Source: Methanomassiliicoccales archaeon
GTDB lineage: Archaea > Thermoplasmatota > Thermoplasmata > Methanomassiliicoccales > JACIVX01
Length of the DNA: 64,000 nt
Reading direction: 5' to 3'
NCBI GenBank assembly: GCA_038850735.1
Contig: JAWCLO010000008.1
Location: forward strand, 10,899-74,898
Shown: piece after piece, positions 32,383-63,542 of the stretch
Numbering within the stretch: position 1 is the first letter of the stretch
Layout: the number at the start of each line of letters is the position of its first letter
The notes under the pieces: generated by a model
What the model was told of the DNA's origin: nothing
Database searches by the model: none
What the model saw: the letters and a program-made list of their open reading frames with translations, nothing else
Position numbers and translations under genes: made by a program

Positions 32383-32412
32383 TTCTAAAACTTCATTGAT
32401 GAATTGTCAAAT

Positions 32413-35020: not shown

Positions 35021-35212
35021 ATATACACCGACGGAGGTGCTGTATGGTATAGTTGAATTTCTAATTTTCCAATAAAGAAATTATACTCTATCGATTACGT
35101 AAGATGAAGAACACAAGTATCCGAGATGCATCTAAAATACAATGAAAGATTTACGGACCTTAGATTTCTTTATATGAAAATAGGAGAGGCCGCATACGCG
35201 GCCAAAAAAAAC

Positions 35213-35671: not shown

Positions 35672-35681
35672 TTCTCTCACC

Positions 35682-38824: not shown

Positions 38825-40657
38825 TTATCCACCTATGTTGAACTCTGAGTTCATAAAATGGAGCCTTTCGATCGCCTCTTTCACAGCCTCACGAAGTCCC
38901 GTCAATTCTTGAAGCTTCGAATTCTTTTCAGATTCAGCTTTTTGTTTGAACATCTCGACCAGTTCAATTGCTCCTTTCATAACGTCCAATGTCATTTGCA
39001 GCCTGTTGAGAATTTCACTTTTTATAAGCTTTGTGCCTTCACGAAGTCTGTACGCATAATCATAGCGCAATTTACCAGAGTACTTATCCATTTCATTTGT
39101 GACTGCATTGCTCACTCGCTTTCTGAGCGTACGTATGTAAAGCGGCTTCGGGAGAACAAATGGTATTTCCGCTGGAATTATACTTTCATAATCCAATAAT
39201 CTGACTTCGTCGAAGTATAATCTGCTCTTGCGGATTGGAAACCCCGATTTTTGGTAATCAGGTATCTCGATCTGAAAGATTCTTCCAATTTCTCTTCTGA
39301 ACTCGTTGATCACTTTTTCAAGTTCGCTTTCCAGAGAAGATGCGATTTCTTGAACTGTCCTTTGCAAGTCCTCTTCCAAGCAATCTAAAATTGGCCGAAT
39401 TTCATGCTCGATTGACGTTGTGAGAAATTCTTCCATCTTAGATAGTGATTCCTTTTTGCTGCATTTGCAGAATTCATTGTTGAAATAATCATCAATTCGC
39501 TCTAGCAAAACAGATGCTTTCTCGCCAATTTGCTGAGAGATCATTTTTTCCACTCTCCTCTCAGCCCGTTCACATTTAGCTAGAATGACGTGATCAACTT
39601 CGGAAATCTTGTCTTGAATCATTTCGATTTCCTGCTCAAGCCAGGCTATTTTACCTCGCACTTCATCAATCGGCTGCTGGAGCATTTTCAATTGAATTTC
39701 AATTGAAGTCAATAAATCTGAAGAAGTTCTCAGGGCTTTTCTCATAATTGATCTAGCAAATGTGATTCCTTTTTCGTTCAAAAGGAAATCTTTGAGACGA
39801 CCTGCGAAGTCTTTAAATCCGCTTTTTTCTAATTTATATTCGTCACCGTCACGAAAAGCCAAGAGGGCTAATCTTGAAGATACTGGATAAATTTCCAGGT
39901 CATTTCTGTTCAAGCGATCTGCAATCACAGAATTGGAATAAGCTATCGCCTCAGCGATGTCGTTTTCATCGATTAAATCAATTTTATTAATTACAATGAA
40001 GATCTTATCTATAATCCCGAGCATTTTCGAAAGAAAAATGATCTCCTCGTTACCAATTGGCGGTTCAACACCAGTGACAAATATTCCAGCGTCGATATTT
40101 GGTAGAAATCTATAGGTGCTACTAGTGCTACCATCATGGACAGAACCTATTCCTGGTGTGTCGACGAGCACCACACCTTGTTTTAAGAATTCATTGTTGA
40201 CGTAAACATGCACTTCAGTCACCCTCTTTTCATTGTTTGGGTTACCTTTTTCTGTGGTGAAAATTCCAAGATCATCAATAGGAATATCAACCGATTCTCC
40301 ATTTTCAAAAAACACTTTTGCCTGAGTTTCTTTCCCATAGAATAATTTTGTAACAACTGATGTGAGGGGCAATATGCCAGTTACCAAAACCTCAGAACCC
40401 AACAATGCATTAATCAATGTGGACTTGCCTCGTTTGAAACTCCCGAGCACCGCGAGGTGAAATCTCTCATTCTCAATATCTTCAATAATGGAATTGATGG
40501 ATGTTACCAGTGAGTTCCCGCCAATGTGTTCTGAAATCTTTACCATAAGGGAAAGTACATCGACGCAGGAATTCTTCCATTCGTTGAAATCCATAGAGCT
40601 TCTCGCAGAGTCCAAAGTCCAATGAGCTTTGCCGTTGAATGCACCACTTGAATCCAT
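38825..40657 (-). CDS. Dynamin-like GTPase (bacterial-DLP type)
   Basis: G1 GSFKRGKST, G2 LPLTS, G3 DTPGIG, G4 NKID, followed by about 350 aa of helical stalk. 610 aa. Confidence 0.8.
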   Translation of the reverse strand: MDSSGAFNGKAHWTLDSARSSMDFNEWKNSCVDVLSLMVKISEHIGGNSLVTSINSIIEDIENERFHLAVLGSFKRGKSTLINALLGSEVLVTGILPLTSVVTKLFYGKETQAKVFFENGESVDIPIDDLGIFTTEKGNPNNEKRVTEVHVYVNNEFLKQGVVLVDTPGIGSVHDGSTSSTYRFLPNIDAGIFVTGVEPPIGNEEIIFLSKMLGIIDKIFIVINKIDLIDENDIAEAIAYSNSVIADRLNRNDLEIYPVSSRLALLAFRDGDEYKLEKSGFKDFAGRLKDFLLNEKGITFARSIMRKALRTSSDLLTSIEIQLKMLQQPIDEVRGKIAWLEQEIEMIQDKISEVDHVILAKCERAERRVEKMISQQIGEKASVLLERIDDYFNNEFCKCSKKESLSKMEEFLTTSIEHEIRPILDCLEEDLQRTVQEIASSLESELEKVINEFRREIGRIFQIEIPDYQKSGFPIRKSRLYFDEVRLLDYESIIPAEIPFVLPKPLYIRTLRKRVSNAVTNEMDKYSGKLRYDYAYRLREGTKLIKSEILNRLQMTLDVMKGAIELVEMFKQKAESEKNSKLQELTGLREAVKEAIERLHFMNSEFNIGG

Positions 40658-40970
40658 AAGCTCACTCTCACCAGATGGTGCGATTGCAAAAAGTAGAAGC
40701 TATCAGCCCGCACCTAGCGGTTAAAGGTGAGCTTCATCACCTGTTAGGGCATTAGCAAAAGCTGTTATATATTAATTTCCCGAGAACCCCACTAAATCGA
40801 CGAGGCAATTTTGTAACCATCGTGAAAGGTTAGTTTTCGAAATGCAGCCCTCATCGATTTAAAATTTATCAATGCAATTTCTGCGAGGCTATACAATCAT
40901 AGATTCAGTAGCAACTTTACAGTTCACTTTCAAAATTCAATCAATTAACGATGGTAATTTATTCTAATTA

Positions 40971-44125: not shown

Positions 44126-44236
44126 TGCGGGGGGAGGGATTTGAACCCTCGGACCCCTTCGGGACAGAATGTCTTCCGATAGCGATGCGCATTCGACTTA
44201 AGTCCTGCGCTTTTGGCCAAGCTTAGCTACCCCCGC
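44126..44236 (-). tRNA. tRNA-Leu (anticodon TAA) with a 26-nt intron at 37/38 (44171-44196)
   Basis: Acceptor GCGGGGG/CCCCCGC plus A73. 3-bp D stem. Anticodon stem CAGGA/TTCTG with loop CT-TAA-G[intron]A. Long variable arm. T arm GAGGG-TTCAAAT-CCCTC. Confidence 0.85.
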
Positions 44237-46730: not shown

Positions 46731-47540
46731 ATGGCATTGAAAATTGCGGTTTCTGGCAAGGGGGGAGTGGGTAAGACCACGGTAGCGGGAATATTGGCGA
46801 GACTTTACGGAAGAGAAGGTAAGGAGGTATTGGTTTTGGATGCGGATCCGGCGTCGAACCTTGCCAGTGTCGTAGGCGTGGATAAAGAGGTGCAAAAGAA
46901 AATAACGCCACTCTCTCAGATGCTTGATCTTATAGAAGAAAGAACAGGCGTACGACCTGGTTCAAGTTATGGTGGCGTTTTTTCTATTAATCCAAAGGTG
47001 GATGACATTGCATCCAGGTATGCCGTTGAAGGAAAAGATGGGGTACGACTTCTTGTTCTAGGAACTATAAGCACAGGCGGTAGCGGATGTTTTTGCCCTG
47101 AAAGTGCGCTGTTGAAAAATCTAGTAAGATACCTCGTCTTGGAAAGAAATCAGTATCTTATTATGGACATGGAGGCAGGATTGGAACATCTCGGCAGGGC
47201 AAGTTCGAAAAATATGGATGTCATGCTTGTGGTGGTCGAACCGGGAATGAGATCGGTAGAAACAGCTGGAAGGATCAAAACGCTGGCATCTCAAATTGGA
47301 ATAAAAAGAATGATGGCAGTTTTGAACAAAATTTCATCTGAAACGGAAAAGCAAAAACTACAGCAGGAAATGGAAAATCTTGAACTCTCTGTAGCTACGA
47401 CTATTCCATTTAATAGAATGTTAATCGAAGCTGATCTTATGGGCGTATCGCCACTTGATATAAAAGGGACGGACGATGTTGCGATCGCCGTAAGAAAACT
47501 CAAAAAGATATTGGACGAGGTAGAAGCTACTTCCCAGTGA
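46731..47540 (+). CDS. cooC: CooC-type nickel-insertion ATPase (copy 1)
   Basis: Deviant Walker A GKGGVGKTT and the CxC metal motif GCFCPE. 269 aa. Confidence 0.85.
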   Translation: MALKIAVSGKGGVGKTTVAGILARLYGREGKEVLVLDADPASNLASVVGVDKEVQKKITPLSQMLDLIEERTGVRPGSSYGGVFSINPKVDDIASRYAVEGKDGVRLLVLGTISTGGSGCFCPESALLKNLVRYLVLERNQYLIMDMEAGLEHLGRASSKNMDVMLVVVEPGMRSVETAGRIKTLASQIGIKRMMAVLNKISSETEKQKLQQEMENLELSVATTIPFNRMLIEADLMGVSPLDIKGTDDVAIAVRKLKKILDEVEATSQ

Positions 47541-51244: not shown

Positions 51245-52249
51245 TTGGATCATATCAAGAGTGGAATGACAAATTTTATCAACGATAATCATATTGGAGG
51301 CTCGGGCTTTAGAATGAGACTGTGGGACTTTGGACGACTAAAAGGATCAAAAATAAAGATTAGTGAAAAAATAGGTCAACCATTAGGACTTGTTAATGGG
51401 AGCCAGGTTTTCAGCTCAATGTTCAGGTATGATTATAATGGCAGAACTAGCTACGAAATTGTCCTTTCAACATTTGGACCAGAGAATTACCGCGAGATAT
51501 GTGATGCAACATTCTATATGCTAGACGTCCCAGGCGCTTGTGCTCAGATTGCAAAATTCTTGGGAGATCGCAACATCGATATTCTAAACTCAGTTTCACT
51601 TAGCGTAATTTCAAATGTATGTATGATGTGGAAAATGCTAGTCGATCTTAGCTATTACGGAAGCTATGAAACGCTCCTGGAAGAATTCTCAAGGTTGAAA
51701 CAAGAAGGGTCGCCACTCATAGACAAAGTTGAGGCAATGGAGATCAAACCATCCCATATAAGCGATCGATATACAAAAGGTGTCGTTCCATCGAACACAT
51801 CGGTTAGGACGCGAACAATGAGAAAAATCCACAGGACACCTTCAATCATCCGCAATGGGGAATTTGAAATTCCATCAGAATATTTGAGAATGATTGAAGG
51901 CATATCCGATGGTCAAGTCGTGATGATGGTGGGAGATACGGATGCTTGGGTTCTTTCGATCACATTTCTCAACCCTGAAACAACTCTTGCTGAAATCGAT
52001 TTCATAATACCAGATAAGCCTGGGGCTATATATGAAGTCACTAGTATACTAGCAAAATACAATATAAATTTGGTTTCAGTTTATACCAAGGTCCTCGTTT
52101 ACTACGATACAATGACGCTTGAACTTGTGGGGGACATGACAAAATCAGGCACAGATTTAGAGGATCTAAGAAAAGTTCTAGTTGAAAGGATCTCAGCACT
52201 CAAGGGAAAGTATGAATTAGTAAAAATAAAAAAAATCGAGATACCATAA
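51245..52249 (+). CDS. Hypothetical protein with two ACT-like domains
   Basis: YMLDVPGACAQIAKFLGDRNIDIL and IIPDKPGAIYEVTSILAKYNINLV resemble ACT beta-alpha starts. The true start is uncertain. Confidence 0.45.
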   Translation: MDHIKSGMTNFINDNHIGGSGFRMRLWDFGRLKGSKIKISEKIGQPLGLVNGSQVFSSMFRYDYNGRTSYEIVLSTFGPENYREICDATFYMLDVPGACAQIAKFLGDRNIDILNSVSLSVISNVCMMWKMLVDLSYYGSYETLLEEFSRLKQEGSPLIDKVEAMEIKPSHISDRYTKGVVPSNTSVRTRTMRKIHRTPSIIRNGEFEIPSEYLRMIEGISDGQVVMMVGDTDAWVLSITFLNPETTLAEIDFIIPDKPGAIYEVTSILAKYNINLVSVYTKVLVYYDTMTLELVGDMTKSGTDLEDLRKVLVERISALKGKYELVKIKKIEIP

Positions 52250-52999
52250 CATCTGTTTAGTTCTTAACCATCCTCGGATGCTGGACATGATTGCCGAAAT
52301 GCAAATCAGGTATGAATTCCTTGGTAGCGATCGAGATTGCAAAAGCAACTGCAGCATCGTGATACCATTGAGATTTGGACATGACTTAAAGCTAATTTTT
52401 TCAGGAATACCTTGAGACGATGATCGAAGATTATATTCGTTAATCAACGATTTTCATTCTTAATGGTATAAAACTATATACCAGTAAGTATTTTCCGAGT
52501 TAAATTTGAACTAGACAAGGGGTATTGGATTTGACCAGCATCTCAGTCTCTTTGCGCGATAAGGACTACAACTTTCCAATTTCAAATCGGATGAGTTCAC
52601 CACAAACTGCTGCGGAGCGCGTGCTAGAATGCGGCCTGAGATTGGTCATATTTCGACACACGTCGAGAAAGAAGCGAGAAGAGAATCCCAAAAGATGCAG
52701 TAATTCCACAGTATGAAAAACTCAAGAGTGAAGCGCATGGTTCAAATAGAAAGTAAAAAGAAATACCCGCATTTGCGCCGGACTGGTTTATTTTCTTATT
52801 TTAAATACTTCATCCTAAATATGGCATATTGTATGCGTAATTCCCGCAAACCATGGCTCATTTCTAAACGACTTTTTCAAAGAATCAATGGTGATGCGTT
52901 TCCATGTTACAAGATCAAGCATCTGACAGTTTCGATGCTTGAAGAGGGATTGAAATTCAATCCCTTAATGAAAAATCAAATAATTTACGAGGGAGGATA

Positions 53000-53005
53000 G
53001 GAGGG
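53000..53005 (+). promoter_or_regulatory. Shine-Dalgarno-like site for the CODH-ACS fusion gene
   Basis: GGAGGG lies 7 nt upstream of the ATG at 53013. A second GGAGG is at 52992-52996. Confidence 0.5.
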
Positions 53006-53012
53006 TAAAAAT

Positions 53013-56000
53013 ATGGAATCAAATGTGAGAACCTGCCCAACAAAAACGTACGACACGACTGCGCAACAGATAATATCCATCGCATCTGAAGTGAAAATTG
53101 AAACGATTTGGGATCGCTACGAAACACAGCTACCCCAGTGTGGCTTTGGAGAATTGGGTATATGCTGTCGCAACTGCTTACAAGGACCGTGTAGAATCGA
53201 TCCATTTGGGGGAGAGCCGAACAAAGGGATTTGTGGAGCAAGAGATTATACCATTGTCGCGAGAAACATTATTAGAAACATTGCAGGCGGTGCTGCCGCG
53301 CATTCCGGTCACGGGAGACACATAGCGGAAACGATGCTGAAAGCGCTTGAGGGGAAGGCGCCAGCCTATAGAATAAAGGATCACGATAAGCTTAGACGTG
53401 TGGCTAGGAGACTTGGCCTTGACGCCGATACGCCTGATGTAAATGGGCTGGCGAAAAGAGTCGTAATTGAAGCGTTAGAAGATTATTCAAGATATGAGAG
53501 AAAACCACTTACGTTTACGACAACAACCATCACTAAAGCCAGGACGAAACTATTCGAAGAAAAAGGTGTCATGCCCGATAACATTGACCATGCCATTTCA
53601 GACGTAATGCATCGCACCACGCTTGGTTGCGATGCCGATCCTGTGCCGATACTCTTTGGCGGCATAAAATGTGCGATAGCTGACTACAATGGTATGCAGA
53701 TATCAACAGATTTATCTGACATACTTTTTGGGACGCCGAGATTAGTTCGCACATACGCTAACCTTGGAGCATTGAAACCGGATGCTGTAAACATCGCAGT
53801 ACACGGACACAACCCAGTGCTGAGTGATATTATTGTTGACATTGCAAGGGAAATGGAGAATGAGGCGAGAGCGGCCGGCGCAACTGGCATAAATATTGTC
53901 GGTATATGTTGCACGGGAAATGAAACTCTGATGAGAAAAGGAGTTGCAATGGCTTCGAATTTTGCATCGCAGGAGCTTGTGCTGGCAACAGGTGTCGTCG
54001 ACCTTATGGTAGTTGACTATCAATGCGTCATGCCATCCGTGGCAGAGATTTGTTCGTGCCTGCACACCGAGATGATCACGACAATGCCTAATGTCCATAT
54101 ACCTTACGCAACTCATGTTCAATTCCGAGAAGAGGACGCTGAAAAGAGCGCAAAAACGATTATTCAGATGGCAATCGAAGCATTTAAGAAGAGGGATAAA
54201 ACAAAAGCTCATGTTCCAGAGGTCAAATTTGAAGTGATTGCGGGATTCAGTCTCGAGCAAATTGAAGAGTTATGCGCTAAATTCTATCCTGATGATCCAC
54301 TGATGTATATTGTCGAGAGTATTAGGAGTGGAATTATCAGAGGCATAGCTCTTATGGCTGGATGCAATAACCAGAAGGCTATACAAGATTACAACCATAT
54401 TACAATCGCAAAGACCCTAATCAAGAACAATGTGCTTGTTCTTGCAACTGGATGCTCCGCCGGCGCTTTCGCTAAGCAGGGACTTCTCTCATCCGAGGCT
54501 ACAGAGAAGTATGCTGGTGAAGGTCTGAGAAAATTCCTTAAGGAACTTGGCGAAAAGAATGGCGTGCAATTGCCCCCTATATGGCACATGGGTTCGTGTG
54601 TTGACAACACTAGATCTGCGAATTTCGCTACAGCACTAGCTGAGAGGTTTGGCGTAGATGTTCACCAGATTCCATTTGTTGCAAGTGCACCAGAAGCCAA
54701 TCACGAGAAAGCTGTCTCGATAGGAACTTGGGCAGTGGCCCTTGGTCTTCCAGTACACGTCGGAACCATAAATTACATTTATGGATCCTCTCTCGTCACG
54801 GAAGTCCTAGAAAACACAGCTAGAGATGTGTACGGGGGTTACTTTATCTTTGAAAGAGATCCGTTCAAGGCCGCTAAGAAACTTCTTAATACAATCGAAT
54901 ATAGGCGATGGATACTTGATCTCGATCACAATTATGTTGTTGAGAGCGGGAACCCCATAAGCCAGAAGAGACTTTATGAAATGGCCATAGAGGGTGCGAT
55001 TATTGCAACAGGATACGCAGACCAGCTCCTTAGCGTTGCAATCGAGAAGTATGGATACGATCAGAAAATAGAATATCCTGACACGGGATATGAGTTGCCA
55101 TCTATTTACGCTTGGGATGGAAGAGAGGTCAAGAAGTTGGGTGATATCCCACCAATTCTTGGAAAAGTTCGAAGCAAGATCAGAGAGGAGCCAACATTAG
55201 AAAACGCGCTGATTGCTGGTGAGGCTACAATGATTGCAGCCGAGATCGTTGAGGCCTTGAAATATATAGACACTGATAAGCCATACGAAGGAACACTCTA
55301 TTGTGGCTTCGTGCCCGACAGGACGTTAAGGGAATTGGGTATCGCATTCGTAGATGATACCATTCCTGGTTGTGCCGTGCTCGTCGGATGTGCAAAGGAT
55401 TCGAAAGAGCTTGCTAAGATCGTAAGAGATTGCCAAAGTAAGGGGATGTTGATCATTGCAACTTTTGATACTATAAGACAGTTGAAAGACGAGAACATTA
55501 AGATGGGGCTCGACCGAATGCTATACCCAGTGGGAGAGTTTACCCAAGCGATACACGGACTTAATTTTGCCATAAGGGCAGCGCTTTCGTTTGGTGGAAT
55601 AAAAAGAGGAGACAGGGAAAATCTTTACAAATATTTGTCAAAGAGACCAAAGGTCTTCGTTCTGCAAATGGGGCCAATTGACCACATCAAGGCAGCTGCA
55701 GAATTTGCGGTGCTATTTAATGGATCGCCAACAATCACAGATCAAGAAATAGAACAAATCCCGGACAAATATGTTGTCCAGAAAGACTACAACAAGATGA
55801 TCCAGACAGCAATTGAAATTAGAGGAATTAAGGTAAAGCTTGCACCTGTGAACATTCCGGTTGCCTATGGGCCAGCCTTTGAAGGCGAAACCGTAAGACG
55901 GCCAGATACATACATCGAAGCTGGTGGCGCAGCGAAGACACTTGCCTTTGAATTGCTGAAAATGCGCAATGAAGACGAAGTTGAAGATGGCAAAATTACA

Positions 56001-57089
56001 GTTATTGGAAAAGATGTTGATGAGATGGAGGAAGGGGGCAAAACACCTCTTGCAATCATTGTTGAGGTCTACGGTAAGAAGATGCAAGAGGATTTCGAGG
56101 CCGTGCTCGAGAGGCGAATACATCAGTTCATTAACTTTGCTGAAGGAGCGTGGCATACGGGACAGAGAAATATCCTTTGGATCCGATTGAGCAAGAGTGC
56201 AGTTAAGGCGGGTCTAAGATTCAAACACTTTGGGGATATTCTTATTACAAAGATGAAGGAAGAATTCGGTAGCATCATAAGTCGCGTACAAGTGACGATA
56301 ATCACAGATGAGCAAGAAATTAGAAAACGACTTCCAGAGGCCCTCGAAACTTATGCAAAGAGAGATGCGAGAATGGCAGGACTTACTGACGAAACCGTTG
56401 ATACCTTCTACAGTTGCACGCTATGCCAATCTTTTGCACCGGATCATGTATGTGTAATTACACCTGAGCGACTTGGTCTCTGCGGTGCAATAAACTGGCT
56501 CGATGCCAAAGCAAGTAATGAAATAGCTCCGACTGGACCAAATCAGCCGATTCCCAAGGGTCAAACGATTGATTCCGTCAAAGGTTCATGGGTTGGTGTA
56601 AATAGTGCGGTATTTGAATTTAGTCATCACAAGATTGAAAGATTCAACGCGTACACGATGATGGAAGACCCGATGACCAGCTGCGGATGCTTCGAATGTA
56701 TAGTTGCAATGACTGCTGATATGCAAGCAGTTATTGTGGTGAACAGAGAATACCCAGGCATGACGCCCATCGGAATGAAGTTTTCTACGTTAGCAGGGTC
56801 CGTTGGCGGAGGTAAGCAGACGCCAGGATTTATCGGAGTGGGCAGAAAATACCTAGTGAGTAAGAAGTTTATTTCTGCAGATGGGGGGTTCTTTAGAATA
56901 GCATGGATGCCAAAAGATCTGAAAGAGGCAATGAGAGACGATCTCAAGAGAAGAAGCGAAGAACTTGGAATGCCAGATTTTGTAGAAAAAATCGCTGACG
57001 AGACTGTTTGCACTGACGCTGAGGGACTGATGGAATGGATGGTTAAGGTAGATCACCCAGCATTGAAGATGCCACCATTGTTGCAATAA
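53013..57089 (+). CDS. acsAB: Fused Ni-CO dehydrogenase (CooS/AcsA-like, aa 1 to about 635) and bacterial-type acetyl-CoA synthase (AcsB-like, aa about 650-1358)
   Basis: CODH half: B/D-cluster Cys (CGFGELGICCRNCLQGPC, GICGA) and C-cluster ligand contexts (VHGHNP, GICCTG, DYQCVM, MAGCNN, ATGCSAG, MGSCVDN). ACS half: YPDTGYELP, CQSFAPDHVC, PERLGLCG, SCGCFE. One uninterrupted ORF. Confidence 0.85.
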   Translation: MESNVRTCPTKTYDTTAQQIISIASEVKIETIWDRYETQLPQCGFGELGICCRNCLQGPCRIDPFGGEPNKGICGARDYTIVARNIIRNIAGGAAAHSGHGRHIAETMLKALEGKAPAYRIKDHDKLRRVARRLGLDADTPDVNGLAKRVVIEALEDYSRYERKPLTFTTTTITKARTKLFEEKGVMPDNIDHAISDVMHRTTLGCDADPVPILFGGIKCAIADYNGMQISTDLSDILFGTPRLVRTYANLGALKPDAVNIAVHGHNPVLSDIIVDIAREMENEARAAGATGINIVGICCTGNETLMRKGVAMASNFASQELVLATGVVDLMVVDYQCVMPSVAEICSCLHTEMITTMPNVHIPYATHVQFREEDAEKSAKTIIQMAIEAFKKRDKTKAHVPEVKFEVIAGFSLEQIEELCAKFYPDDPLMYIVESIRSGIIRGIALMAGCNNQKAIQDYNHITIAKTLIKNNVLVLATGCSAGAFAKQGLLSSEATEKYAGEGLRKFLKELGEKNGVQLPPIWHMGSCVDNTRSANFATALAERFGVDVHQIPFVASAPEANHEKAVSIGTWAVALGLPVHVGTINYIYGSSLVTEVLENTARDVYGGYFIFERDPFKAAKKLLNTIEYRRWILDLDHNYVVESGNPISQKRLYEMAIEGAIIATGYADQLLSVAIEKYGYDQKIEYPDTGYELPSIYAWDGREVKKLGDIPPILGKVRSKIREEPTLENALIAGEATMIAAEIVEALKYIDTDKPYEGTLYCGFVPDRTLRELGIAFVDDTIPGCAVLVGCAKDSKELAKIVRDCQSKGMLIIATFDTIRQLKDENIKMGLDRMLYPVGEFTQAIHGLNFAIRAALSFGGIKRGDRENLYKYLSKRPKVFVLQMGPIDHIKAAAEFAVLFNGSPTITDQEIEQIPDKYVVQKDYNKMIQTAIEIRGIKVKLAPVNIPVAYGPAFEGETVRRPDTYIEAGGAAKTLAFELLKMRNEDEVEDGKITVIGKDVDEMEEGGKTPLAIIVEVYGKKMQEDFEAVLERRIHQFINFAEGAWHTGQRNILWIRLSKSAVKAGLRFKHFGDILITKMKEEFGSIISRVQVTIITDEQEIRKRLPEALETYAKRDARMAGLTDETVDTFYSCTLCQSFAPDHVCVITPERLGLCGAINWLDAKASNEIAPTGPNQPIPKGQTIDSVKGSWVGVNSAVFEFSHHKIERFNAYTMMEDPMTSCGCFECIVAMTADMQAVIVVNREYPGMTPIGMKFSTLAGSVGGGKQTPGFIGVGRKYLVSKKFISADGGFFRIAWMPKDLKEAMRDDLKRRSEELGMPDFVEKIADETVCTDAEGLMEWMVKVDHPALKMPPLLQ

Positions 57090-57104: not shown

Positions 57105-58061
57105 ATGGTTGAAGTACCAATTCCAAAGGAAAAATGGACTGGAAAAATTGGAACTACTGTGATAGGGGCTGTAGCAGAAGAGGGGGGCACGAGGGCAAAG
57201 AAAGTGGTTATCGGGGGGCAATCCTGCATGCCTTTTCTCTCCTTTGAGGCGCCGATCCTTAATAGACCAGCAATTGCTGGTGAGGTTGTCGACACATTAA
57301 GAGACTACCCACCACTGGCAAGAAAAGCATTTGGCGATGTAGTCGAAGACCCAGTTCAATGGGCAAAAGCCTGGGTTGAGAAATACGGAGTTGATCTAAT
57401 CTGCCTGAAACTCTATTCGACAAATCCTGAAGAAGAAAACAAGTCTCCACAGGAGGCAGCTGATCTCGTCCGAAAGATCTTAGCCGCAGTGCCTGTACCC
57501 CTCGTTGTATATGGATGTGGGCACGAAGAGAAGGATGCAAAGGTTATGGAAGCAGTTAGTAACGCTGGTTCCAAAGAAAGACTTCTGCTCGGCCATGCAG
57601 AAGAGAGTGCATACAAGTCGATAGCTGCTGCATCCATGGCGAACAACCACGCATTGATAGCGTTCTCCAATCTAGATATCAACCTTGCCAAGCAAATAAA
57701 CATACTCCTTACAGACTTTGGCGTCAGGAAAGAGAACATTGTAGCAGATCCACTAATGGCTAGTTTAGGAATGGGGCTTGAATATTCATATTCCGTGAAC
57801 GAGCGTATAAGGCTGGCAGCTTTGATGGGGGACAGCATGCTTCAAGTGCCGATGGTCTGCGATACTACAATCGCTTGGAAGGCAAGGGAAGCGACGGAAG
57901 AGAACGAGTCACTCGGGGATATAGAGGTGAGGGCTGCGTGGTGGGAAGCAACAACTGGTCTCGCTGCACTAATATCAGGTGCAGATATGCTTATTATGAG
58001 AAGTCCAAAGGCTGTCCAGATCATTAAGAAAGCGATCAACGAGCTATTAGGAGGTGCATAA
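57105..58061 (+). CDS. acsD: Corrinoid iron-sulfur protein small subunit (AcsD-type)
   Basis: 318 aa, TIM-barrel-type CFeSP small subunit. The N-terminus (IPKEKWTGKI ... VIGG) resembles AcsD. AGGAGG RBS. Confidence 0.8.
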   Translation: MVEVPIPKEKWTGKIGTTVIGAVAEEGGTRAKKVVIGGQSCMPFLSFEAPILNRPAIAGEVVDTLRDYPPLARKAFGDVVEDPVQWAKAWVEKYGVDLICLKLYSTNPEEENKSPQEAADLVRKILAAVPVPLVVYGCGHEEKDAKVMEAVSNAGSKERLLLGHAEESAYKSIAAASMANNHALIAFSNLDINLAKQINILLTDFGVRKENIVADPLMASLGMGLEYSYSVNERIRLAALMGDSMLQVPMVCDTTIAWKAREATEENESLGDIEVRAAWWEATTGLAALISGADMLIMRSPKAVQIIKKAINELLGGA

Positions 58062-58062
58062 A

Positions 58063-59391
58063 ATGCCCACAGCAATGGAAATATTCAAACTCCTGCCAAA
58101 AAAGAATTGCGGCGAATGCAAATTCCCGACATGCCTAGCATTTGCCATGCAGCTTGCAAACCAGAAGGCGAAATTAGAAGACTGTCCGTATGTTTCCGAG
58201 CAAGCGAAGGCGACACTCGCTGCATCTGCTGCTCCACCGATTAGATTGGTAAAGGTGGGTACGGGAGCAAATGCAATCGAAATTGGAGACGAAACAGAAA
58301 TGTACAGGCACGAAAAGAAGTTCTTTCACCCTACTGCCTACGCTTTCATCATTTCAGATACATCGAATGACAGTGAAGTAAAAGCTAGAGTTGAAAAGGC
58401 TCATTCTCTTAAATTTGAGAGGGTAGGCCAATTGATGAAAATGGATATGATCGGGGTACGTTGCGACTCAGGAGACCTCAAAAGGTTCACTAAGGTAGTG
58501 AGCGATGTCGCAGCACTCACAGAACTTCCGCTCGTTCTCATTTGCAACGATCCTGTCAAAATGAAAGCAGCTGCCTCTAACATTGCAGCGAAGGTGCCAT
58601 TATTACATTGCGCAACGTCGTCGAATGCTACTGAAATGGCTGCCGTGGCCAAGGAGTTGAAATGTCCTTTAGTTGTCTACGAGGACAGGGGACTCAACGA
58701 GTTAGCCGATTTGGTTGCAAAGGTAAAAGCAGCTGGCGTTGAAGATATCGTACTTGATTTTGGAGCGAGGAACTTAAAAGAATTGCTTGAAAGAAGCACA
58801 ATTATCAGAAAGATCTCTGTTAAGAAGATCTTTAGGGGTCTGGGTTATCCAATCTATGTGCATGCAGGTTCAGGTGAGGAGGCGGTTCTGCGAGGGCTCA
58901 TATCTACGATGAAATATGGGAGCGTCGTCGCATTCGACGATATTGATCCAGCAACAGCTCTTCCGCTATATGTCCTAAGGCAGAACATTTACACAGATCC
59001 TCAGGTGCCGATTCAGGTCAAACCAGATCTTTACGCAATAAACAATCCCAATGAGAAATCTCCTCTTCTCTTCACGACAAACTTTTCCCTAACCTATTTC
59101 ACTGTCTTGGCAGATATTGAGAAGAGCAAGATACCAGTGTGGCTGCAAGTCATCGATACAGAAGGGCTATCGGTGATGACTGCGTTTGCGGCTGGTAAAC
59201 TAACACCTGAGATGGTTGCGAAGGCAATTGATGCATCTGGAGCAAAGGAGAAATCAAGGCGCGGTGAAATCATCATACCGGGAATGGTAGCAAGAATGAG
59301 CAGCAAACTCCAAGAACTTACTGGTCTAAAGGTCATTGTTGGTCCAAAGGAATCAAGCGGCTTGCCAAAACTTCTAAAATCTCTGGATTGA
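58063..59391 (+). CDS. acsC: Corrinoid iron-sulfur protein large subunit (AcsC-type)
   Basis: N-terminal [4Fe-4S] motif CGECKFPTCLAF ... CPY. About 442 aa. ATG lies 1 nt after the acsD stop, with a GGAGGTG RBS. Confidence 0.85.
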   Translation: MPTAMEIFKLLPKKNCGECKFPTCLAFAMQLANQKAKLEDCPYVSEQAKATLAASAAPPIRLVKVGTGANAIEIGDETEMYRHEKKFFHPTAYAFIISDTSNDSEVKARVEKAHSLKFERVGQLMKMDMIGVRCDSGDLKRFTKVVSDVAALTELPLVLICNDPVKMKAAASNIAAKVPLLHCATSSNATEMAAVAKELKCPLVVYEDRGLNELADLVAKVKAAGVEDIVLDFGARNLKELLERSTIIRKISVKKIFRGLGYPIYVHAGSGEEAVLRGLISTMKYGSVVAFDDIDPATALPLYVLRQNIYTDPQVPIQVKPDLYAINNPNEKSPLLFTTNFSLTYFTVLADIEKSKIPVWLQVIDTEGLSVMTAFAAGKLTPEMVAKAIDASGAKEKSRRGEIIIPGMVARMSSKLQELTGLKVIVGPKESSGLPKLLKSLD

Positions 59392-59519: not shown

Positions 59520-60272
59520 TCATTTCAAATCCTTGGCAATCTCCATCACGGCCCTGAACGCACGATTTGTTTTTTCGATGTGAATTAAAGGTTCTCCGTT
59601 CACAGCCATTTCTTCAATTCTTTTGTCATGAGGAACTTTTCTCACCTCAGAAAACTCGCTGGCTATTGCCATTTCTTGAATGATAGGAGGAAGTTCGTGC
59701 GGACATCTATTTATGATGAGCATGCTTGACTTCACATCAATGTTCATATTCATCGCAAGCTTTCTTATCCGGATTGCAGTTTCTATCCCTAATTTCGTCG
59801 GATCAGACACAACGATAAGCTTATCCATTTTCCTGGTCGTCCGCCGAGAGAGGTGTTCCATTCCCGCTTCATTATCAATCACTATGTAAGCATAATCATC
59901 CATCAACTCGTCGAGAAAAGTTCGCAAAACATTGTTGATGTAGCAATAACAGCCTGGTCCTTCGGATCTGCCCATAGTAATGAGATCGAACCGATCCCCT
60001 TCTACCATGGCGAGTTGTATTTGATACCTCACATATTCATGCTTGCTTGTACTAGATGAGATCTGCTCAGCATTTTTAATGAGGTCTTCCCGAAGATCAC
60101 CGATGGTCTTCTCCACCCTCACACCAAGCTTGTCTCCAAGATTGGAATTTGGGTCCGCATCAACTGCTAACACCACGTCACCAGATTTCTCGGCAAGTGC
60201 TTTGATCAAAAGTGCCGCGATTGTTGATTTGCCGACTCCTCCTTTTCCAGCTATTGCTGCCGTGTAAGCCAT
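59520..60272 (-). CDS. cooC: CooC/AcsF-type nickel-insertion ATPase (copy 2)
   Basis: GKGGVGKST and the CxC motif GCYCYIN. 250 aa. Confidence 0.85.
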   Translation of the reverse strand: MAYTAAIAGKGGVGKSTIAALLIKALAEKSGDVVLAVDADPNSNLGDKLGVRVEKTIGDLREDLIKNAEQISSSTSKHEYVRYQIQLAMVEGDRFDLITMGRSEGPGCYCYINNVLRTFLDELMDDYAYIVIDNEAGMEHLSRRTTRKMDKLIVVSDPTKLGIETAIRIRKLAMNMNIDVKSSMLIINRCPHELPPIIQEMAIASEFSEVRKVPHDKRIEEMAVNGEPLIHIEKTNRAFRAVMEIAKDLK

Positions 60273-61306
60273 GCATCATCTCCCAGGTAAAATCTTTCTT
60301 TAAGTCTTCGTGAAAGACTCAAGAGAATCTCTATGGCACTTTCTGCATTTTCTTCAGACATCCCACCAAGTCCGCATTGAGGTGTCAGCAAAGAATTCCT
60401 AATCAATAATTCTTGATCAACACCTTTTGATACTAATTTTCTTATCAATGAGAGCATTTTCTCTTCGAGCGATCCTATAGTCACACTGGAAATCGATTCA
60501 TCGTTATTCGGCACTATTCCCCATGCAAGTACACCACCTCGATCGAGAAACCGCGAAATTTCTTCTGGAAATAGTGTTACCGTGTGCCCGAATTCATATG
60601 CATCAAAGGATAGAATGTCTATGCTAGCATTGACAACTTGAGACCAATCAGTATTGCCACAACAATGGATGCCTTTCACACAATCTATGCCATTAAAGAC
60701 ATCATTAATCCAATCTATAGCATCTTCCCACCTAATGCTTGCATATGGTGTGCCAAGAAGAGCTAGTGAAGGTTCGTCAAGAAATATGATGACCTCTTTG
60801 TATTTTGACCTTAGCACTCTTACTTGCCACTTTGTCATCATATTGAGATTCTTCCTAATGATCTCGCAATAGCTCTCATCATAGATAACGGGCCGATTCC
60901 TCGTATCGAATATCTGAAGACCTTCACTGATCGGGCCCGTTGTCTGCCCTTTTACAATTTTACCCAGATTCCTCGGTTCGCGGCTGATCATTTCGAAGAA
61001 CCCAGTAAATCTATCATTCGAAAAACAAAAATAATCTAAATCATGACTGATCACTTTTTCGTAAAATGTAGCGGGATCATAATTATCAAGATCGACCATT
61101 ATTCTTTTTCTATCTACATCAATAGAAACGCCAGGCAGATGCATTGCATATTGAACATACATATTTTCCAAGAATCCTTTTTTTGGAAGCTGTGGCCAGA
61201 ATGGGATAAGCTCTTTCTTACTTAGAACAAGATCGAGGGCCTTAACTTGATCCTGATGCGGCAATGAACCTATACATGTTGCCGAAAAATTCCAAGTCAC
61301 ATTCAT
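60251..61306 (-). CDS. MetE-C-terminal-like (core-MetE type) zinc methyltransferase
   Basis: 351 aa. IHCCGN (His/Cys) and TPQCGLG match the MetE-type zinc site (HxC ... CGL). 22-nt overlap with cooC. Confidence 0.55.
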   Translation of the reverse strand: MNVTWNFSATCIGSLPHQDQVKALDLVLSKKELIPFWPQLPKKGFLENMYVQYAMHLPGVSIDVDRKRIMVDLDNYDPATFYEKVISHDLDYFCFSNDRFTGFFEMISREPRNLGKIVKGQTTGPISEGLQIFDTRNRPVIYDESYCEIIRKNLNMMTKWQVRVLRSKYKEVIIFLDEPSLALLGTPYASIRWEDAIDWINDVFNGIDCVKGIHCCGNTDWSQVVNASIDILSFDAYEFGHTVTLFPEEISRFLDRGGVLAWGIVPNNDESISSVTIGSLEEKMLSLIRKLVSKGVDQELLIRNSLLTPQCGLGGMSEENAESAIEILLSLSRRLKERFYLGDDAWLTRQQ

Positions 61307-61449: not shown

Positions 61450-61596
61450 ATGGTTAGATGTCCTTTCTGCGGCGCGAAAATCGAAATCATAAGCGATCAG
61501 ATTATATGTGAATGCGGTGAGCAGCTCCCGCGAGACATCCATAAGTTCGAAAGAGAACGATGCTTATGTGGTAAAACCATAGGCTTTCCCGATTAG
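61450..61596 (+). CDS. Small zinc-ribbon ORF (48 aa, hypothetical)
   Basis: Hand translation MVRCPFCGAKIEIISDQIICECGEQ...CLCGK. It is below the ORF-track cutoff and converges on the RACo stop. Confidence 0.25.
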   Translation: MVRCPFCGAKIEIISDQIICECGEQLPRDIHKFERERCLCGKTIGFPD

Positions 61597-63542
61597 ACTT
61601 TCCTAAGTAGCTCGGCAACCCTTGGGAATTTACCAATATCTGTGTGGGGAAGGAAGATTGCAGAAGAAAACTCGTCGAAAAATGCCTGGATTGTGCTCAA
61701 CTCCAGATATGTCATCATTTCGTAGACCGCCTTTGCCTCCTTTCTCTTTTCTTCAGAAATAAGTGTTAAATGCGCCCCTGCAAGAGCGCCATTACCCAAG
61801 AAAACGAAACGCTCTGCTTGAAGATCTGGCAGCAATCCAATCGTAATTGCTCTTTCCATATCTATGAAGTTGCCAAATCCGCCAGCTATGTATATCTTTG
61901 ATACATCATTAAAATCCATATTGGCTTTTTTTAGTAGCACGCTACATGCTGCGTAAATGGCTGCCTTCGTTCTAATTATATTTGCTATATCGTCATCACT
62001 GATAACTATATCCCGGCCCTTTTCCTCTTCCACTATCAATTTGCGTTCTTCGTCAAACCTTCTTATTTTGTCTCTACCTATTGAAGTCTCTTCCTTCCAC
62101 GCGACCACAAATTCCATACCGCTTTCGCTCATTCTTACACGGGGAGTACTTACTTGCTGAATACGCCCCTTTTTATCTATGATTCCTCTCAAAAACATTT
62201 CTGCGACGAGGTCGATAAGACCAGAACCGCAGATGCCTCTTGGCTTCACACCACCTATGGTTGAGTACTTTACCTCATAATCATTGAGAATTCGGATTCT
62301 CTCAATTGCACCAGTCATAGCTCTCATGCCAAATCTGACTTCTCCGCCTTCGAATGCCGGTCCAGCCGAGCAGGAACACGCCATCAACCACTCGTTATTT
62401 CCTAGTACAACTTCTCCATTTGTTCCAACATCAATCAACAATGCGATTTCTGACTTTAGATGCATCCCCGAGGCTAGGACATCAGCAATGATATCTCCGC
62501 CGACATAGCTCGCCCTTCCTGGGACGCAGTACACCGGAGCGTCTTCATTTATGTTTATTCCAAGGTCACTGGCACGATATACAGGAGGAGCGTTGACGGT
62601 TGGAATATATGGGTCATAGCGAATATATTTCGGATTTAATCCAAGAAAAAGGTGAATCATTGTCGTATTGCCGGCTACGGACATACAAGAAATCTCATCG
62701 ACACAAATCGATTCGCCGATTTTTCCGCAATTCTCGGGGTTCCCACACAATTCTGAAATAAGGTAATTTATCGTTTCGAGGACGAGATTATTTAGCCTCT
62801 CTAATCCACCCTCTTCTGCATATGATATTCGGGATAATACATCCTCTCCGCACATAATCTGCTTGTTGTAGCTTGACGCTTGGCGAATGATTTCGCCATT
62901 GAAGAGATCTATAATACTTGCAACGACGGTCGTTGTTCCTATATCTACAGCCACTCCAAAATTTCTATGAGTTTTATCTCCTTCTCTAACATCTATGAGA
63001 ACTTTCGAATCTTTACTTTCATCCAGCACAGCAGTTATTCTCCAATCACTATCCCTTAATACCCTAGCCAAAATCCTTAGCACCCGAAGCGTTGCCTTGA
63101 GAGACTTATCGGAAGACAAAAGATGACGAGCAATTCGTTCCAGATCACCGATATTGTCGTCCAGACTTGGCGGCTTCAACTTAAGGTATCTAGTCGAGGT
63201 CAATGGGGAGAGTCTGCCCAGCTTCTCAATGGTATATGACATAAGTATTTGATGTTGTGCAATCTTAATTTCCTCCGGGACAAACACTTCAAGATTCCCT
63301 TGAACACGAGTCTGGCAAGCGAGACGATATCCTGCTAGCCATTCATCATCCGAAAAAAATTCTTTTCCTTTTTCCATCTCATGGAGACCTTGCACTATCA
63401 CCTTGCATTTTCCACAGGTTCCTTTTCCGCCACATATGCTATTGAGTATTACGCCTCCTCGAAAGGCTCCTTCTAGTATTTTTTCGCCTTCGTTAACTTC
63501 CACCGTAATGTCCTGCGGAAGAAACCTTATCTTGTGTGACAT
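61593..63542 (-). CDS. Reductive activator of corrinoid Fe-S protein (RACo; [2Fe-2S] ferredoxin plus ASKHA ATPase)
   Basis: N-terminal plant-type ferredoxin motif CGGKGTCGKCKV ... LACQT. Large actin-fold ATPase region (DIGTTT, DVGTNGE). 649 aa. Confidence 0.8.
   Translation of the reverse strand: MSHKIRFLPQDITVEVNEGEKILEGAFRGGVILNSICGGKGTCGKCKVIVQGLHEMEKGKEFFSDDEWLAGYRLACQTRVQGNLEVFVPEEIKIAQHQILMSYTIEKLGRLSPLTSTRYLKLKPPSLDDNIGDLERIARHLLSSDKSLKATLRVLRILARVLRDSDWRITAVLDESKDSKVLIDVREGDKTHRNFGVAVDIGTTTVVASIIDLFNGEIIRQASSYNKQIMCGEDVLSRISYAEEGGLERLNNLVLETINYLISELCGNPENCGKIGESICVDEISCMSVAGNTTMIHLFLGLNPKYIRYDPYIPTVNAPPVYRASDLGININEDAPVYCVPGRASYVGGDIIADVLASGMHLKSEIALLIDVGTNGEVVLGNNEWLMACSCSAGPAFEGGEVRFGMRAMTGAIERIRILNDYEVKYSTIGGVKPRGICGSGLIDLVAEMFLRGIIDKKGRIQQVSTPRVRMSESGMEFVVAWKEETSIGRDKIRRFDEERKLIVEEEKGRDIVISDDDIANIIRTKAAIYAACSVLLKKANMDFNDVSKIYIAGGFGNFIDMERAITIGLLPDLQAERFVFLGNGALAGAHLTLISEEKRKEAKAVYEMMTYLELSTIQAFFDEFSSAIFLPHTDIGKFPRVAELLRKV

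Follow-up and report, generated by a model that had tools for sequence, protein, structure and literature searches.

In bacteria, acsA and acsB are normally adjacent genes, and in the alpha2beta2 CODH/ACS of Moorella the two enzymes remain separate subunits. In archaea, the CdhC component of the ACDS is without the A1 domain (PMC13370988). MesB, the core methionine synthase, has been linked to CoFeSP by Price et al. 2021 (PMC7857596), with methyl feeding proposed for Dehalococcoides. A fused Ni-CODH/ACS is listed in Supplementary Table 1 of Inoue et al. 2019 (PMC6344411) for two archaeal genomes, "Euryarchaeota archaeon RBG_16_62_10" (OGS41472.1) and "RBG_13_57_23" (OGS44063.1). The literature that we searched contained neither biochemistry nor descriptive text on a fused CODH-ACS beyond that supplementary table, in agreement with the initial annotation of the DNA described here, which was aware of no biochemical characterisation of this architecture.

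The window analysed for the current report is a 64,000-nucleotide stretch of DNA from an archaeon (not a bacterium) close to Methanomassiliicoccales, in which a bacterial-type cluster is carried. Judged by its sequence, one gene of this cluster very probably specifies a genuine single-chain, bifunctional CODH/ACS that is predicted to be expressed in this relative of the Methanomassiliicoccales. The fusion is genuine and is not new, being the form that CODH/ACS usually takes in many archaea that are uncultured.

The fused gene and its catalytic modules

The fused gene (Table 1) begins with ATG, encodes 1358 aa and is broken by neither a stop nor a frameshift across its CODH and ACS portions, so that the uninterrupted reading frame with two enzymes described in the initial annotation is confirmed by the ORF and its translation. 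The annotated start is supported by the strong Shine-Dalgarno sequence AGGGAGGATAGGAGGG located just 5' of it. Four Pfam domains, all of which recur in the 120 listed homologues, follow each other along the chain: Prismane (PF03063) at aa 50-617 with 545 bits, CODH_A_N (PF18537) at aa 671-752, CdhC (PF03598) at aa 948-1103 and ACS_CODH_B_C (PF19436) at aa 1114-1357. Two NCBIfam equivalogs match above their cut-offs, TIGR01702 (CooS) over aa 13-635 with 702 bits (cut-off 478) and NF040764 (CODH_ACS_al_bet) over aa 659-1356 with 991 bits (cut-off 800).

Table 1. Features of the fused CODH-ACS locus, in window coordinates
Feature	Coordinates	Strand	Basis
ACT-domain protein, 334 aa, 5' of the fusion	51245..52249	+	PF01842
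Shine-Dalgarno-like AGGGAGGATAGGAGGG	52990..53005	+	read from sequence; ends 7 nt before ATG
Fused CODH-ACS gene	53013..57089	+	ORF, four Pfam domains, two NCBIfam equivalogs, at least 120 full-length homologues
Ni-CODH module, aa 1-635	53013..54917	+	TIGR01702; alignment to CODH-II chain 2yiv_X; modelled fold
Inter-module linker, aa 636-651, DLDHNYVVESGNPISQ	54918..54965	+	gap between CODH and ACS homology ends
Segment spanning the CODH/ACS join, WILDLDHNYVVESGNPISQK
ACS domain A1 (CODH-docking, CO-tunnel domain), aa 652-941	54966..55835	+	PF18537; aligned to Moorella AcsB 20-312
ACS domain A2, aa 948-1103	55854..56321	+	PF03598 CdhC, 226 bits
ACS domain A3 with A-cluster ligands	56352..57083	+	PF19436, 402 bits
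acsD, corrinoid iron-sulfur protein small subunit, 318 aa	57105..58061	+	PF03599; NF003376, 362 bits (cut-off 280)
acsC, corrinoid iron-sulfur protein large subunit, 445 aa	58054..59391	+	PF04060 FeS and PF03599; synteny
CooC/AcsF-type P-loop ATPase, 250 aa	59520..60272	-	CbiA, AAA_31 and ParA families; position kept in related loci
Candidate core methionine synthase (MesB-like), 351 aa	60251..61306	-	weak NF002119 match, E 3e-5
RACo/AcsV, reductive activase of corrinoid protein, 649 aa	61593..63542	-	Fer2, RACo_linker, Raco_middle, RACo_C_ter; synteny

The CODH half aligns to chain 2yiv_X of Carboxydothermus hydrogenoformans CODH-II with 726 bits and 51-52% identity, and its modelled fold matches that of CODH-II with a TM(target) of 0.97 and an rmsd of 1.8 A. 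By what we take to be the ligand numbering of CODH-II, residue-by-residue alignment places the D-cluster at C43/C51, the B-cluster at C52/C55/C60/C74 and the C-cluster at H266/C300/C338/C451/C481/C529, with H97 and K566 as the catalytic acid-base pair; the ligand contexts of all three clusters, claimed earlier from the letters alone, can thus be assigned individually. These ligands are kept in 113-121 of the 121 fused proteins. The best CODH matches of the window protein are clade F enzymes, and the module is a CooS/AcsA-type Ni,Fe-CODH (clade F in Inoue et al. 2019) that is predicted to be catalytic.

The ACS half (aa ~652-1357) is a complete three-domain ACS of the bacterial type, which aligns end to end with residues 20-729 of Moorella AcsB (852 bits). 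Its A-cluster residues C1135, C1138, C1147, C1157 and C1224-G1225-C1226 correspond to Moorella C506, C509, C518, C528 and C595-G-C597, and are invariant in 121 of 121 fused proteins. All of the motifs named in the initial annotation were found (CQSFAPDHVC at 1138-1147, LCG with C1157 and SCGCFE with C1224-G-C1226), and its proposal of a full-length AcsB that includes the N-terminal CODH-docking domain agrees with the PF18537 and NF040764 matches and with the AcsB alignment. Moorella A110, A222 and A265, presumably residues of the CO tunnel, have counterparts in A743 (121/121), A853 (121/121) and A896 (109/121), the last position being occupied by Ile or Val in 12 of the 121 family members.

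Homology to solved CODHs stops at query aa 635-640 and homology to solved ACSs starts at aa 650-653. The intervening linker of ~12-16 residues stands in place of the last ~14 residues of AcsA and the first ~19 of AcsB, and the junction, LDLDHNYVVESGNPISQ, lies at aa 635-651 (nt 54915-54965), within a few bases of the nt ~54909-54965 originally claimed for it. The ORF, domains and alignments together bear out that a complete CooS/AcsA-type Ni-CODH is truly joined in one covalent chain, through a short linker, to a full-length AcsB. Measured from W633 to A658, linker lengths are clade-specific (24, 30 and 32-35 residues), and the window protein belongs to the shortest class.

An AlphaFold2 monomer run on aa 1-950, comprising the CODH, the linker and ACS domain A1, gave a pTM of 0.90 and a pLDDT of 88, with pLDDT 89-96 over aa 631-660, where the linker is predicted to be ordered. 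Since the CODH module by itself explains only 0.65 of the TM score of the model, the predicted placement of A1 relative to the CODH is confident, and the confident model with its ordered linker indicates that the short tether is compatible with docking within one chain. The monomer prediction is thus compatible with an ACS domain A1 that would dock on the CODH of its own chain. Among the PDB matches (longest matching chain, 734 aa), there was no solved structure with both modules in one chain.

The family of fused proteins and its gene neighbourhood

The rarity implied by the initial annotation did not hold up. Fused homologues form at least 120 full-length clusters with ~1,060 member sequences at 60-92% identity from five independent sources (NCBI, JGI, ENA and Logan among them), and occur in ~75 species-level genomes as well as in the supplementary table already cited. 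Of the best 80 species-representative archaeal loci, ~75 are fused, and the fusion is carried by the chromosome-level records CP070732, CP070748, CP070629, OW818644 and OY970393. NCBI records of the family bear the name of either the CODH or the ACS half. The ACS-only product P0300 proved to be an annotation artefact, as the fused ORF in the underlying DNA (L081) is intact and matches the window protein in a single tblastn HSP over aa 1-1358 at 91.8% identity.

Clustering at 50% yields essentially one full-length fused family. Neighbour-joining trees of the CODH half and of the ACS half each recover the fused proteins as a monophyletic group with the same three sub-clades, with bootstrap values for the fused clade of 100 in the ACS half (with L080) and 97 in the CODH half; the window protein is placed in the short-linker, Methanomassiliicoccales-type sub-clade. 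The agreement between the two half trees most likely points to a single origin of the fusion. The RBG_13_57_23 contig belongs to the same monophyletic family (locus L070) and is 60% identical to the window protein.

The gene order fusion-acsD-acsC-cooC-RACo is conserved among related loci, and acsD lies directly 3' of the fusion in nearly all of them. The acsC product matches NF003195 with 545 bits (cut-off 306), and the RACo/AcsV product matches NF040756 with 636 bits, which is under the 800-bit cut-off. From its context, the CooC/AcsF-type ATPase is probably a Ni-insertion chaperone. The ACT-domain gene, which also precedes the fusion in the closest loci (L001, L002, L003, L045, L080 and L081), possibly has a regulatory role. 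The MesB-like gene was seen only in Methanomassiliicoccales-type loci among the related loci compared, and its H214-x-C216, D235 and C311 coincide in position with the zinc ligands of D. mccartyi MesB as given by Price et al. 2021 (PMC7857596). No AcsE-type methyltransferase or pterin-binding domain was detected among the window ORFs scanned with Pfam and NCBIfam; acsE could be located elsewhere in the genome.

Some relatives have lost parts of the CODH. In the fused proteins of L043, L067 and L053, the D- and B-cluster cysteines are missing, together with H266, C300/C338 and K566, and the ACS of L043 and L053 is intact despite this loss of ligands; L080, P0124 and P0140 are ACS-only. The relatives with a ligand-less or deleted CODH belong to the methanogenic Methanomassiliicoccaceae. 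Since the CODH module is clearly non-catalytic in some relatives, fusion alone is no guarantee of CODH activity.

Alternative readings of the fused chain

The single ORF might be ascribed to an error of sequencing or assembly (a missing stop, a frameshift or a chimera made of acsA and acsB), as the two genes usually adjoin in bacteria and ACS-only products such as P0300 (702 aa) sometimes appear in public annotation. However, the same in-frame junction recurs in 120 of 120 listed, independent homologues (NCBI, JGI, ENA and Logan) and in the chromosome-level records, the linker is almost unchanged in P0001, the homologue closest to the window protein (92% identity), the phylogenies of the two halves are congruent, and the GC content passes smoothly over the join (0.447, 0.433, 0.457). 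By these comparisons an artefact is effectively refuted, and we grant it next to no chance. It is also improbable that the gene is fused and two subunits are nevertheless made, by an internal start near Met657 or by proteolysis of the linker, to give an ordinary alpha2beta2 complex. A gene caller did pick Met657 as the start in a close relative, and some polyproteins are known to be processed, but Met657 is not conserved (many homologues have Lys there, as in ...FKKAIDG... and ...YSKAIDG...) and the upstream sequence, AGCCAGAAGAGACTTTATGAA, holds no GGAGG-type site, whereas a strong one precedes the true start. The linker is, moreover, short and predicted to be ordered, with no cleavage-like motif conserved across the three linker classes, and the long-term maintenance of the reading frame in three clades argues for selection on a single chain.

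Of more weight, though still unlikely, is a functional fusion with swapped domains, in which the A1 of one chain would dock on the CODH of the partner chain in a dimer. Contacts within and between chains cannot be separated by a monomer prediction, and the clades differ in linker length by 6 to 11 residues, which shows some geometric tolerance. Against a swap, the window protein has the shortest class of linker, with only ~12 residues between the ends of CODH and ACS homology, and AlphaFold closes the same-chain arrangement at the pTM and linker pLDDT given above. A very improbable reading is that the CODH module of the window protein serves as a non-catalytic scaffold and the protein acts as an ACS only, for example in acetyl-CoA cleavage that feeds methyl groups to the MesB-like synthase. 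The MesB-like gene in the cluster and the relatives with a ligand-less or absent CODH could be cited in its favour, but the window protein has lost none of the CODH ligands and neither of the acid-base residues, exceeds the CooS equivalog cut-off of 478 with its 702 bits, and is as well conserved in its CODH half as the bulk of the family.

Proposed function and comparison with known systems

In the reading that we prefer, that of a single-chain enzyme with both activities, two chains would dimerise via their CODH modules and a shared D-cluster into a homodimer that would be topologically equivalent to the Moorella alpha2beta2 complex. CO2 would be reduced to CO at the C-cluster, and the CO would travel along the predicted, conserved tunnel of ACS domain A1, docked on the CODH of the same chain, to be combined at the A-cluster with CoA and a methyl group from AcsCD in the reversible formation of acetyl-CoA. 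The fusion would enforce a 1:1 stoichiometry and the co-translational assembly of the tunnel interface. It most likely occurred once, when neighbouring acsA and acsB genes lost the stop and the spacer that separated them, in a bacterial-type cluster that would have been resident in archaea.

We tentatively extend this proposal to a broader one, to which we give somewhat less than an even chance: that the fused protein might be the sole CODH/ACS of a large group of uncultured Thermoplasmatota and their neighbours, with the form (CODH-ACS)2 and each A1 permanently locked on its own CODH, and that it might have undergone stepwise conversion to an ACS-only protein. If so, the short, ordered tether would be a different solution from that of the two-subunit complex of bacteria and from that of the transiently docked ACDS of archaea, and the CODH of the Methanomassiliicoccaceae would have become a ligand-less scaffold and then been deleted, feeding a CoFeSP-MesB methyl shunt. 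No description of such a trajectory of CODH loss was found in the text of the literature searched.

With the CODH/ACS of Moorella thermoacetica (1MJG/1OAO) and C. hydrogenoformans (7ZKJ), the window protein shares both catalytic modules (the CODH half scores 679 bits in its alignment to residues 27-660 of Moorella AcsA), the A-, B-, C- and D-cluster ligands, the three-domain ACS with a docking A1 and the partner genes acsC, acsD, cooC/acsF and RACo. It differs in being one polypeptide with a 16-residue linker, in its archaeal host, and in having a MesB-like gene in the cluster and no acsE among the scanned ORFs. The archaeal ACDS (CdhABCDE) has the overall chemistry and the archaeal setting in common with it, as well as a homologous A2 and A3 core (TIGR00316 cdhC, 451 bits; PDB 9c0s_E). 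Unlike the ACDS, the window has a CODH that is not of the CdhA type (TIGR00314, 52 bits; cut-off 781) and is without CdhB, an A1 domain is present in its ACS, and a covalent tether takes the place of docking that is only transient. The closest solved CODH in both sequence and fold is C. hydrogenoformans CODH-II (1SU6 and other structures), a monofunctional enzyme that stands alone, with no ACS partner and no tunnel exit to an A1 domain. In ACS-only Dehalococcoides mccartyi (PMC7857596), a core methionine synthase of the MesB type occurs together with ACS and CoFeSP, as its candidate counterpart does here, whereas the window adds to this "incomplete Wood-Ljungdahl" set a fully ligated CODH module. 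The RBG_16_62_10 and RBG_13_57_23 entries have the fused Ni-CODH/ACS in common with the window protein; an N-terminal "Cys3 motif" is noted for those entries but is lacking in the window protein, which has only C8 before its D-cluster motif.

Two complete enzyme modules in one reading frame

The initial annotation described a Ni-CODH and an acetyl-CoA synthase (ACS) fused in a single polypeptide, and the window DNA bears this out. The ORF begins with an ATG preceded by a strong Shine-Dalgarno-like sequence, AGGGAGGATAGGAGGG, at 52990-53005, and continues for 1358 codons without interruption. Both halves exceed the equivalog cut-offs of NCBIfam, with 702 bits over aa 13-635 for the CooS model TIGR01702 (cut-off 478 bits) and 991 bits over aa 659-1356 for the CODH_ACS_al_bet model NF040764 (cut-off 800 bits), and every metal ligand can be aligned to its counterpart in solved structures (Table). 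Homology to the solved CODHs stops at aa 635-640 and homology to the solved ACSs starts at aa 650-653, so the connector consists of 12-16 residues (aa 635-651, nt 54915-54965), which is where the initial annotation had placed it. A tryptic peptide predicted from the sequence to span the junction is WILDLDHNYVVESGNPISQK.

Table. Features of the window, of its fused protein and of related loci and proteins
Feature	Position or residues	Strand	Remarks
tRNA gene	19364-19473	+	~110 nt; Rfam; missed by ARAGORN
RadA/Rad51 recombinase with mini-intein	24369-25862	+	Intein_splicing domain at aa 141-297
trs cluster	30805-36875	-	DVU_1553-like AMP-dependent ligase, TrsS, DVU_1557-family redox protein, UroD/MtaA-like methyltransferase
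Dynamin-family GTPase gene	38825-40657	-	
Fluoride riboswitch	40687-40750	-	43.9 bits, above gathering score
tRNA gene	44126-44236	-	~110 nt; Rfam; missed by ARAGORN
Second MinD/CooC-like P-loop ATPase	46731-47540	+	
AT-rich gap before fusion gene	52250-53012		760 nt, GC 0.36-0.41
Fused CODH-ACS ORF	53013-57089	+	
Prismane/CODH domain	aa 50-617		Pfam
Three ACS domains	aa 671-752, 948-1103, 1114-1357		Pfam
D-cluster ligands	C43, C51		in place, alignment to solved structures
B-cluster ligands	C52, C55, C60, C74		in place, same alignment
C-cluster ligands	H266, C300, C338, C451, C481, C529		in place, same alignment
Catalytic residues of CODH module	H97, K566		in place, same alignment
A-cluster ligands	C1135, C1138, C1147, C1157, C1224-G-C1226		in place, same alignment
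acsD	57105-58061	+	downstream of fusion
acsC	58054-59391	+	downstream of fusion
CooC/AcsF-type ATPase	59520-60272	-	
351-aa MesB-like protein	60251-61306	-	between cooC and RACo
RACo/AcsV	61593-63542	-	
Methanomassiliicoccaceae MAG loci with degraded CODH half	L043:5620-9732, L067:5701-9315, L053:2-3166		
Intein carriers	P0023, P0025 (~1895 aa); L063:6001-11688; L052:6001-11201; P0122, P0129		

Both catalytic modules are complete, and the genes of their partners accompany them. When one genome per GTDB species was scanned, 225 loci with a relative emerged; the best 80 of them were inspected, and in nearly all of these 80 the genes follow the order fusion-acsD-acsC-cooC-RACo. The ACT-domain gene, ABC-2 transporter and PadR gene found upstream of the fusion are common only to the closest loci and to the related loci L080 and L081, and the gene for the 351-aa protein is limited, among the same 80, to loci of the Methanomassiliicoccales type. 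This protein has no match in Pfam and a weak methionine-synthase match (E 3e-5). Its residues H214-x-C216, D235 and C311 coincide exactly in position with the residues that bind zinc in Dehalococcoides MesB (PMC7857596), a motif that makes a role as CoFeSP-dependent core methionine synthase probable. Price et al. (PMC7857596) proposed that MesB draws methyl groups from CoFeSP, and they describe the Methanomassiliicoccales as "MesB only". Of the window ORFs scanned with Pfam and NCBIfam, none resembles an AcsE-type pterin methyltransferase.

The window has a second gene for a CooC-like ATPase, 12 kb upstream of its counterpart in the acs cluster; the CODH may be served by one of these proteins and the ACS by the other (CooC versus AcsF). 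The sole ORF in the AT-rich gap before the fusion gene (95 aa, 52713-53000) matches no family and has no homologue in the 80 loci. It is probably not a gene, and the gap is therefore probably a long promoter or leader.

A family selected as one reading frame

Among 5.8 billion protein clusters we found at least 120 full-length fused homologues (1355-1405 aa, 60-92% identical to the window protein), every one of which has the same four domains, in addition to some fragments and two versions with an intein. The homologues come from NCBI, JGI, ENA and Logan assemblies, and the listed cluster sizes add up to ~1,060 member sequences; in the genome scan the fusion is present in ~75 of the best 80 of the 225 loci. 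This very architecture has been recorded before, in the catalogue of fused Ni-CODHs of Inoue et al. 2019 (PMC6344411), in whose supplementary table the contig RBG_13_57_23 corresponds to one of our loci of the fused family (L070). The window gene adds an orthologue to a known family, with at most 92% identity among the listed matches, and, having existing database entries so close to it, is itself no discovery. By the refuting condition that the initial annotation had set for itself, its suggestion of novelty has to be given up, the architecture being common and already flagged in print, and its description of the protein as fused, complete and uncharacterised stands: structure and literature searches found no solved structure or biochemistry of a CODH-ACS fusion, and a literature search outside Adam, Borrel & Gribaldo 2018 (PNAS) found no descriptive text on it other than the Inoue 2019 table.

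The fused proteins form one clade in the neighbour-joining (NJ) tree of each half (bootstrap 100 for ACS, with L080 included, and 97 for CODH), and the same three sub-clades appear in both trees, a congruence which indicates that one fusion event joined the halves and that they have co-evolved from then on. The full-length fusion has a single representative (P0107) in a library clustered at 50% identity, where the nearest unfused relatives are ~53% (ACS) and ~48% (CODH) identical. The linker, measured between the invariant W633 and A658, comes in three length classes, each specific to a clade (24, 30 and 32-35 residues), and the window protein belongs to the shortest. The family has been under long-term selection as one reading frame.

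That the fused ORF might be an artefact of assembly or sequencing can be excluded for practical purposes, given the single fused clade and shared sub-clades of the two trees, the continuity of GC content across the join, a junction that is in frame in all 120 listed homologues, which derive from multiple assembly sources, and the occurrence of the fusion in chromosome-level records of the genome scan (among them CP070732.1, CP070748.1, CP070629.1, OW818644.1 and OY970393.1). It is also unlikely that two separate subunits are made from the fused gene, since the internal Met657 is replaced by Lys in many homologues and, unlike the true start, is not preceded by a GGAGG site, and since no motif in the linker is conserved across clades. 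A CODH module that has ceased to be catalytic does occur in relatives of the window protein; for the window protein itself, to judge by its intact set of CODH ligands, such a loss of function would appear to be excluded.

A member of the closest 90% cluster, P0300 (702 aa, ACS-only), was considered as a true unfused relative and proved to be an annotation artefact: the DNA of L081 (2033-6106; GCA_014361295.1, JACIVX010000001.1) encodes an intact fused ORF of 1358 aa, in which the gene caller of the public annotation began at Met657 and left the 1.9-kb CODH half uncalled. The NCBI names of other family members also cover one half only. The fused gene is an annotation hazard, and marker-gene surveys can miscount cooS and acsB because records are named after one half or, as in L081, the ACS half alone is called.

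Fusions among CODH/ACS components are a recurrent theme. Others that we encountered (P0128, P0134, P0161, P0133) include AcsB-AcsD (~1210-1225 aa), AcsD-CODH (1122 aa) and a pyridine-nucleotide-disulphide (flavin) oxidoreductase joined to AcsB (1024 aa). A large intein containing a LAGLIDADG homing endonuclease also interrupts some fused and unfused homologues, at the point where ACS domain A3 begins and next to the A-cluster cysteine motif.

Degraded CODH halves and archaeal residence

In three loci from Methanomassiliicoccaceae MAGs (L043, L067 and L053) the ACS half is ~71% identical to that of the window and the fused CODH half is down to 41-55% identity. The D- and B-cluster cysteines are lost in all three, together with H266 and C300 of the C-cluster; C338 is also lost in L043, and the catalytic K566 in L043 and L053, the two in which the A-cluster is intact. 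Other representatives are shortened further (P0121, 1141 aa; P0123, 991 aa), and in P0124, P0140 and L080 the ACS stands alone, such genes encoding 713-730 aa. The 713-aa ACS of L080 (5998-8139; Methanomassiliicoccus sp. UBA6) directly follows the same ACT-domain gene, with neighbours as in the window, and the nearest unfused ACS clusters are those of Methanomassiliicoccaceae and Methanomethylophilaceae. The simplest reading of these sequences is that the CODH was inactivated and then deleted in methyl-reducing methanogens, which would leave ACS, CoFeSP and MesB as a unit of the Dehalococcoides kind. In the NJ analysis L080 branches as the sister of the fused clade at a bootstrap of only 63%, so that the tree alone does not settle the polarity between secondary loss and an ancestral ACS-only state; the PadR/ABC/ACT/MesB synteny that L080 has in common with the window favours loss. 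The decay series merits proper phylogenetic treatment.

The initial framing as Moorella-type fits the enzyme and not its host. The window is archaeal DNA. Its genes include those for a RadA/Rad51 recombinase, a class I archaeal CCA-adding enzyme and aIF2-alpha, along with two tRNA genes that probably carry introns, and the named homologues of the fused protein fit this origin. Intron-containing tRNA genes are typical of archaea. Named homologues come from MAGs of Methanomassiliicoccales, Thermoplasmata/Thermoplasmatota, "Methanobacteriota" and Halobacteriota, with a few labelled Bathyarchaeia, and the closest representative genome among the best 80 of 225 loci is that of Methanomassiliicoccales archaeon LCB019-061 (L071; 94% identity over aa 770-1358, where the contig ends). 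A bacterial-type acs cluster is resident in archaea, as had already been reported for AcsB, which is listed in Methanomassiliicoccales, Thermoplasmatota, Bathyarchaeota and others (PMC13370988). Four loci that are ~60-61% identical to the window protein (L039, L068, L031, L052) bear the conflicting labels Candidatus Acidiferrales bacterium, Bathyarchaeia, Methanomicrobia and Halobacteriota, which suggests mis-binning or inconsistent naming of a single archaeal lineage. In peat, soil, aquifer and sediment archaea, namely the relatives of Methanomassiliicoccales, other Thermoplasmatota and Bog-38-like Halobacteriota, the usual CODH/ACS appears to be the fused one, which is for this reason probably relevant to carbon cycling in these habitats.

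Elsewhere in the window, the minus-strand cluster at 30805-36875 is the selenium-associated "trs" gene set, here in an archaeon. Its radical-SAM gene (33.6-35.0 kb) had been taken for a methanopterin-biosynthesis enzyme on a Pfam zinc-ribbon match, and an H4MPT-dependent pathway had been deduced from it; NCBIfam identifies the gene as TrsS (531 bits, cut-off 490), whereby the pathway is withdrawn and the window gives no indication of the C1 carrier. The fluoride riboswitch lies ~30 nt upstream of the dynamin-family GTPase gene, which is not known to be among the usual fluoride-responsive genes.

The single chain and known systems

The window protein would most likely dimerise through its CODH modules to give a (CODH-ACS)2 particle equivalent to the Moorella alpha2beta2 complex, in which CO from the C-cluster would reach the A-cluster through domain A1, the CODH-docking domain of ACS. 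AlphaFold2, run on aa 1-950 (CODH, linker and A1) with 60 fused homologues as input, gave a model with a pTM of 0.90 and a mean pLDDT of 88, with 89-96 in the linker region. Since the CODH module alone accounts for only 0.65 of the TM score, a pTM of 0.90 means that the model also places A1 confidently against CODH. The initial annotation had asked whether a tether of 12-18 residues can bridge the two modules; in the model the tether is ordered, and we infer that A1 would dock within the same chain or across the dimer, at an interface that might be identical with Moorella's. Alanines occupy the positions of Moorella A110, A222 and A265 in 121/121, 121/121 and 109/121 family members, respectively; mutagenesis by Tan et al. 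in 2005 reportedly identified these three residues as tunnel-lining.

At the heart of the Wood-Ljungdahl pathway stands CODH/ACS, which also serves as a model of how gas is channelled from one metal centre to another. A natural CODH-ACS fusion fixes stoichiometry and geometry and would suit single-gene heterologous expression, cryo-EM and the engineering of CO2-to-acetyl-CoA catalysts. The family is well worth the attention of enzymologists, who appear not to have exploited it yet. The window protein differs from the archaeal ACDS in that it scores 52 bits with the CdhA model (cut-off 781) and possesses the A1 domain. Its closest characterised counterparts are the CODH/ACS enzymes of Moorella and Carboxydothermus, which are alike in chemistry, ligands, domains and partners, but are built from separate subunits.
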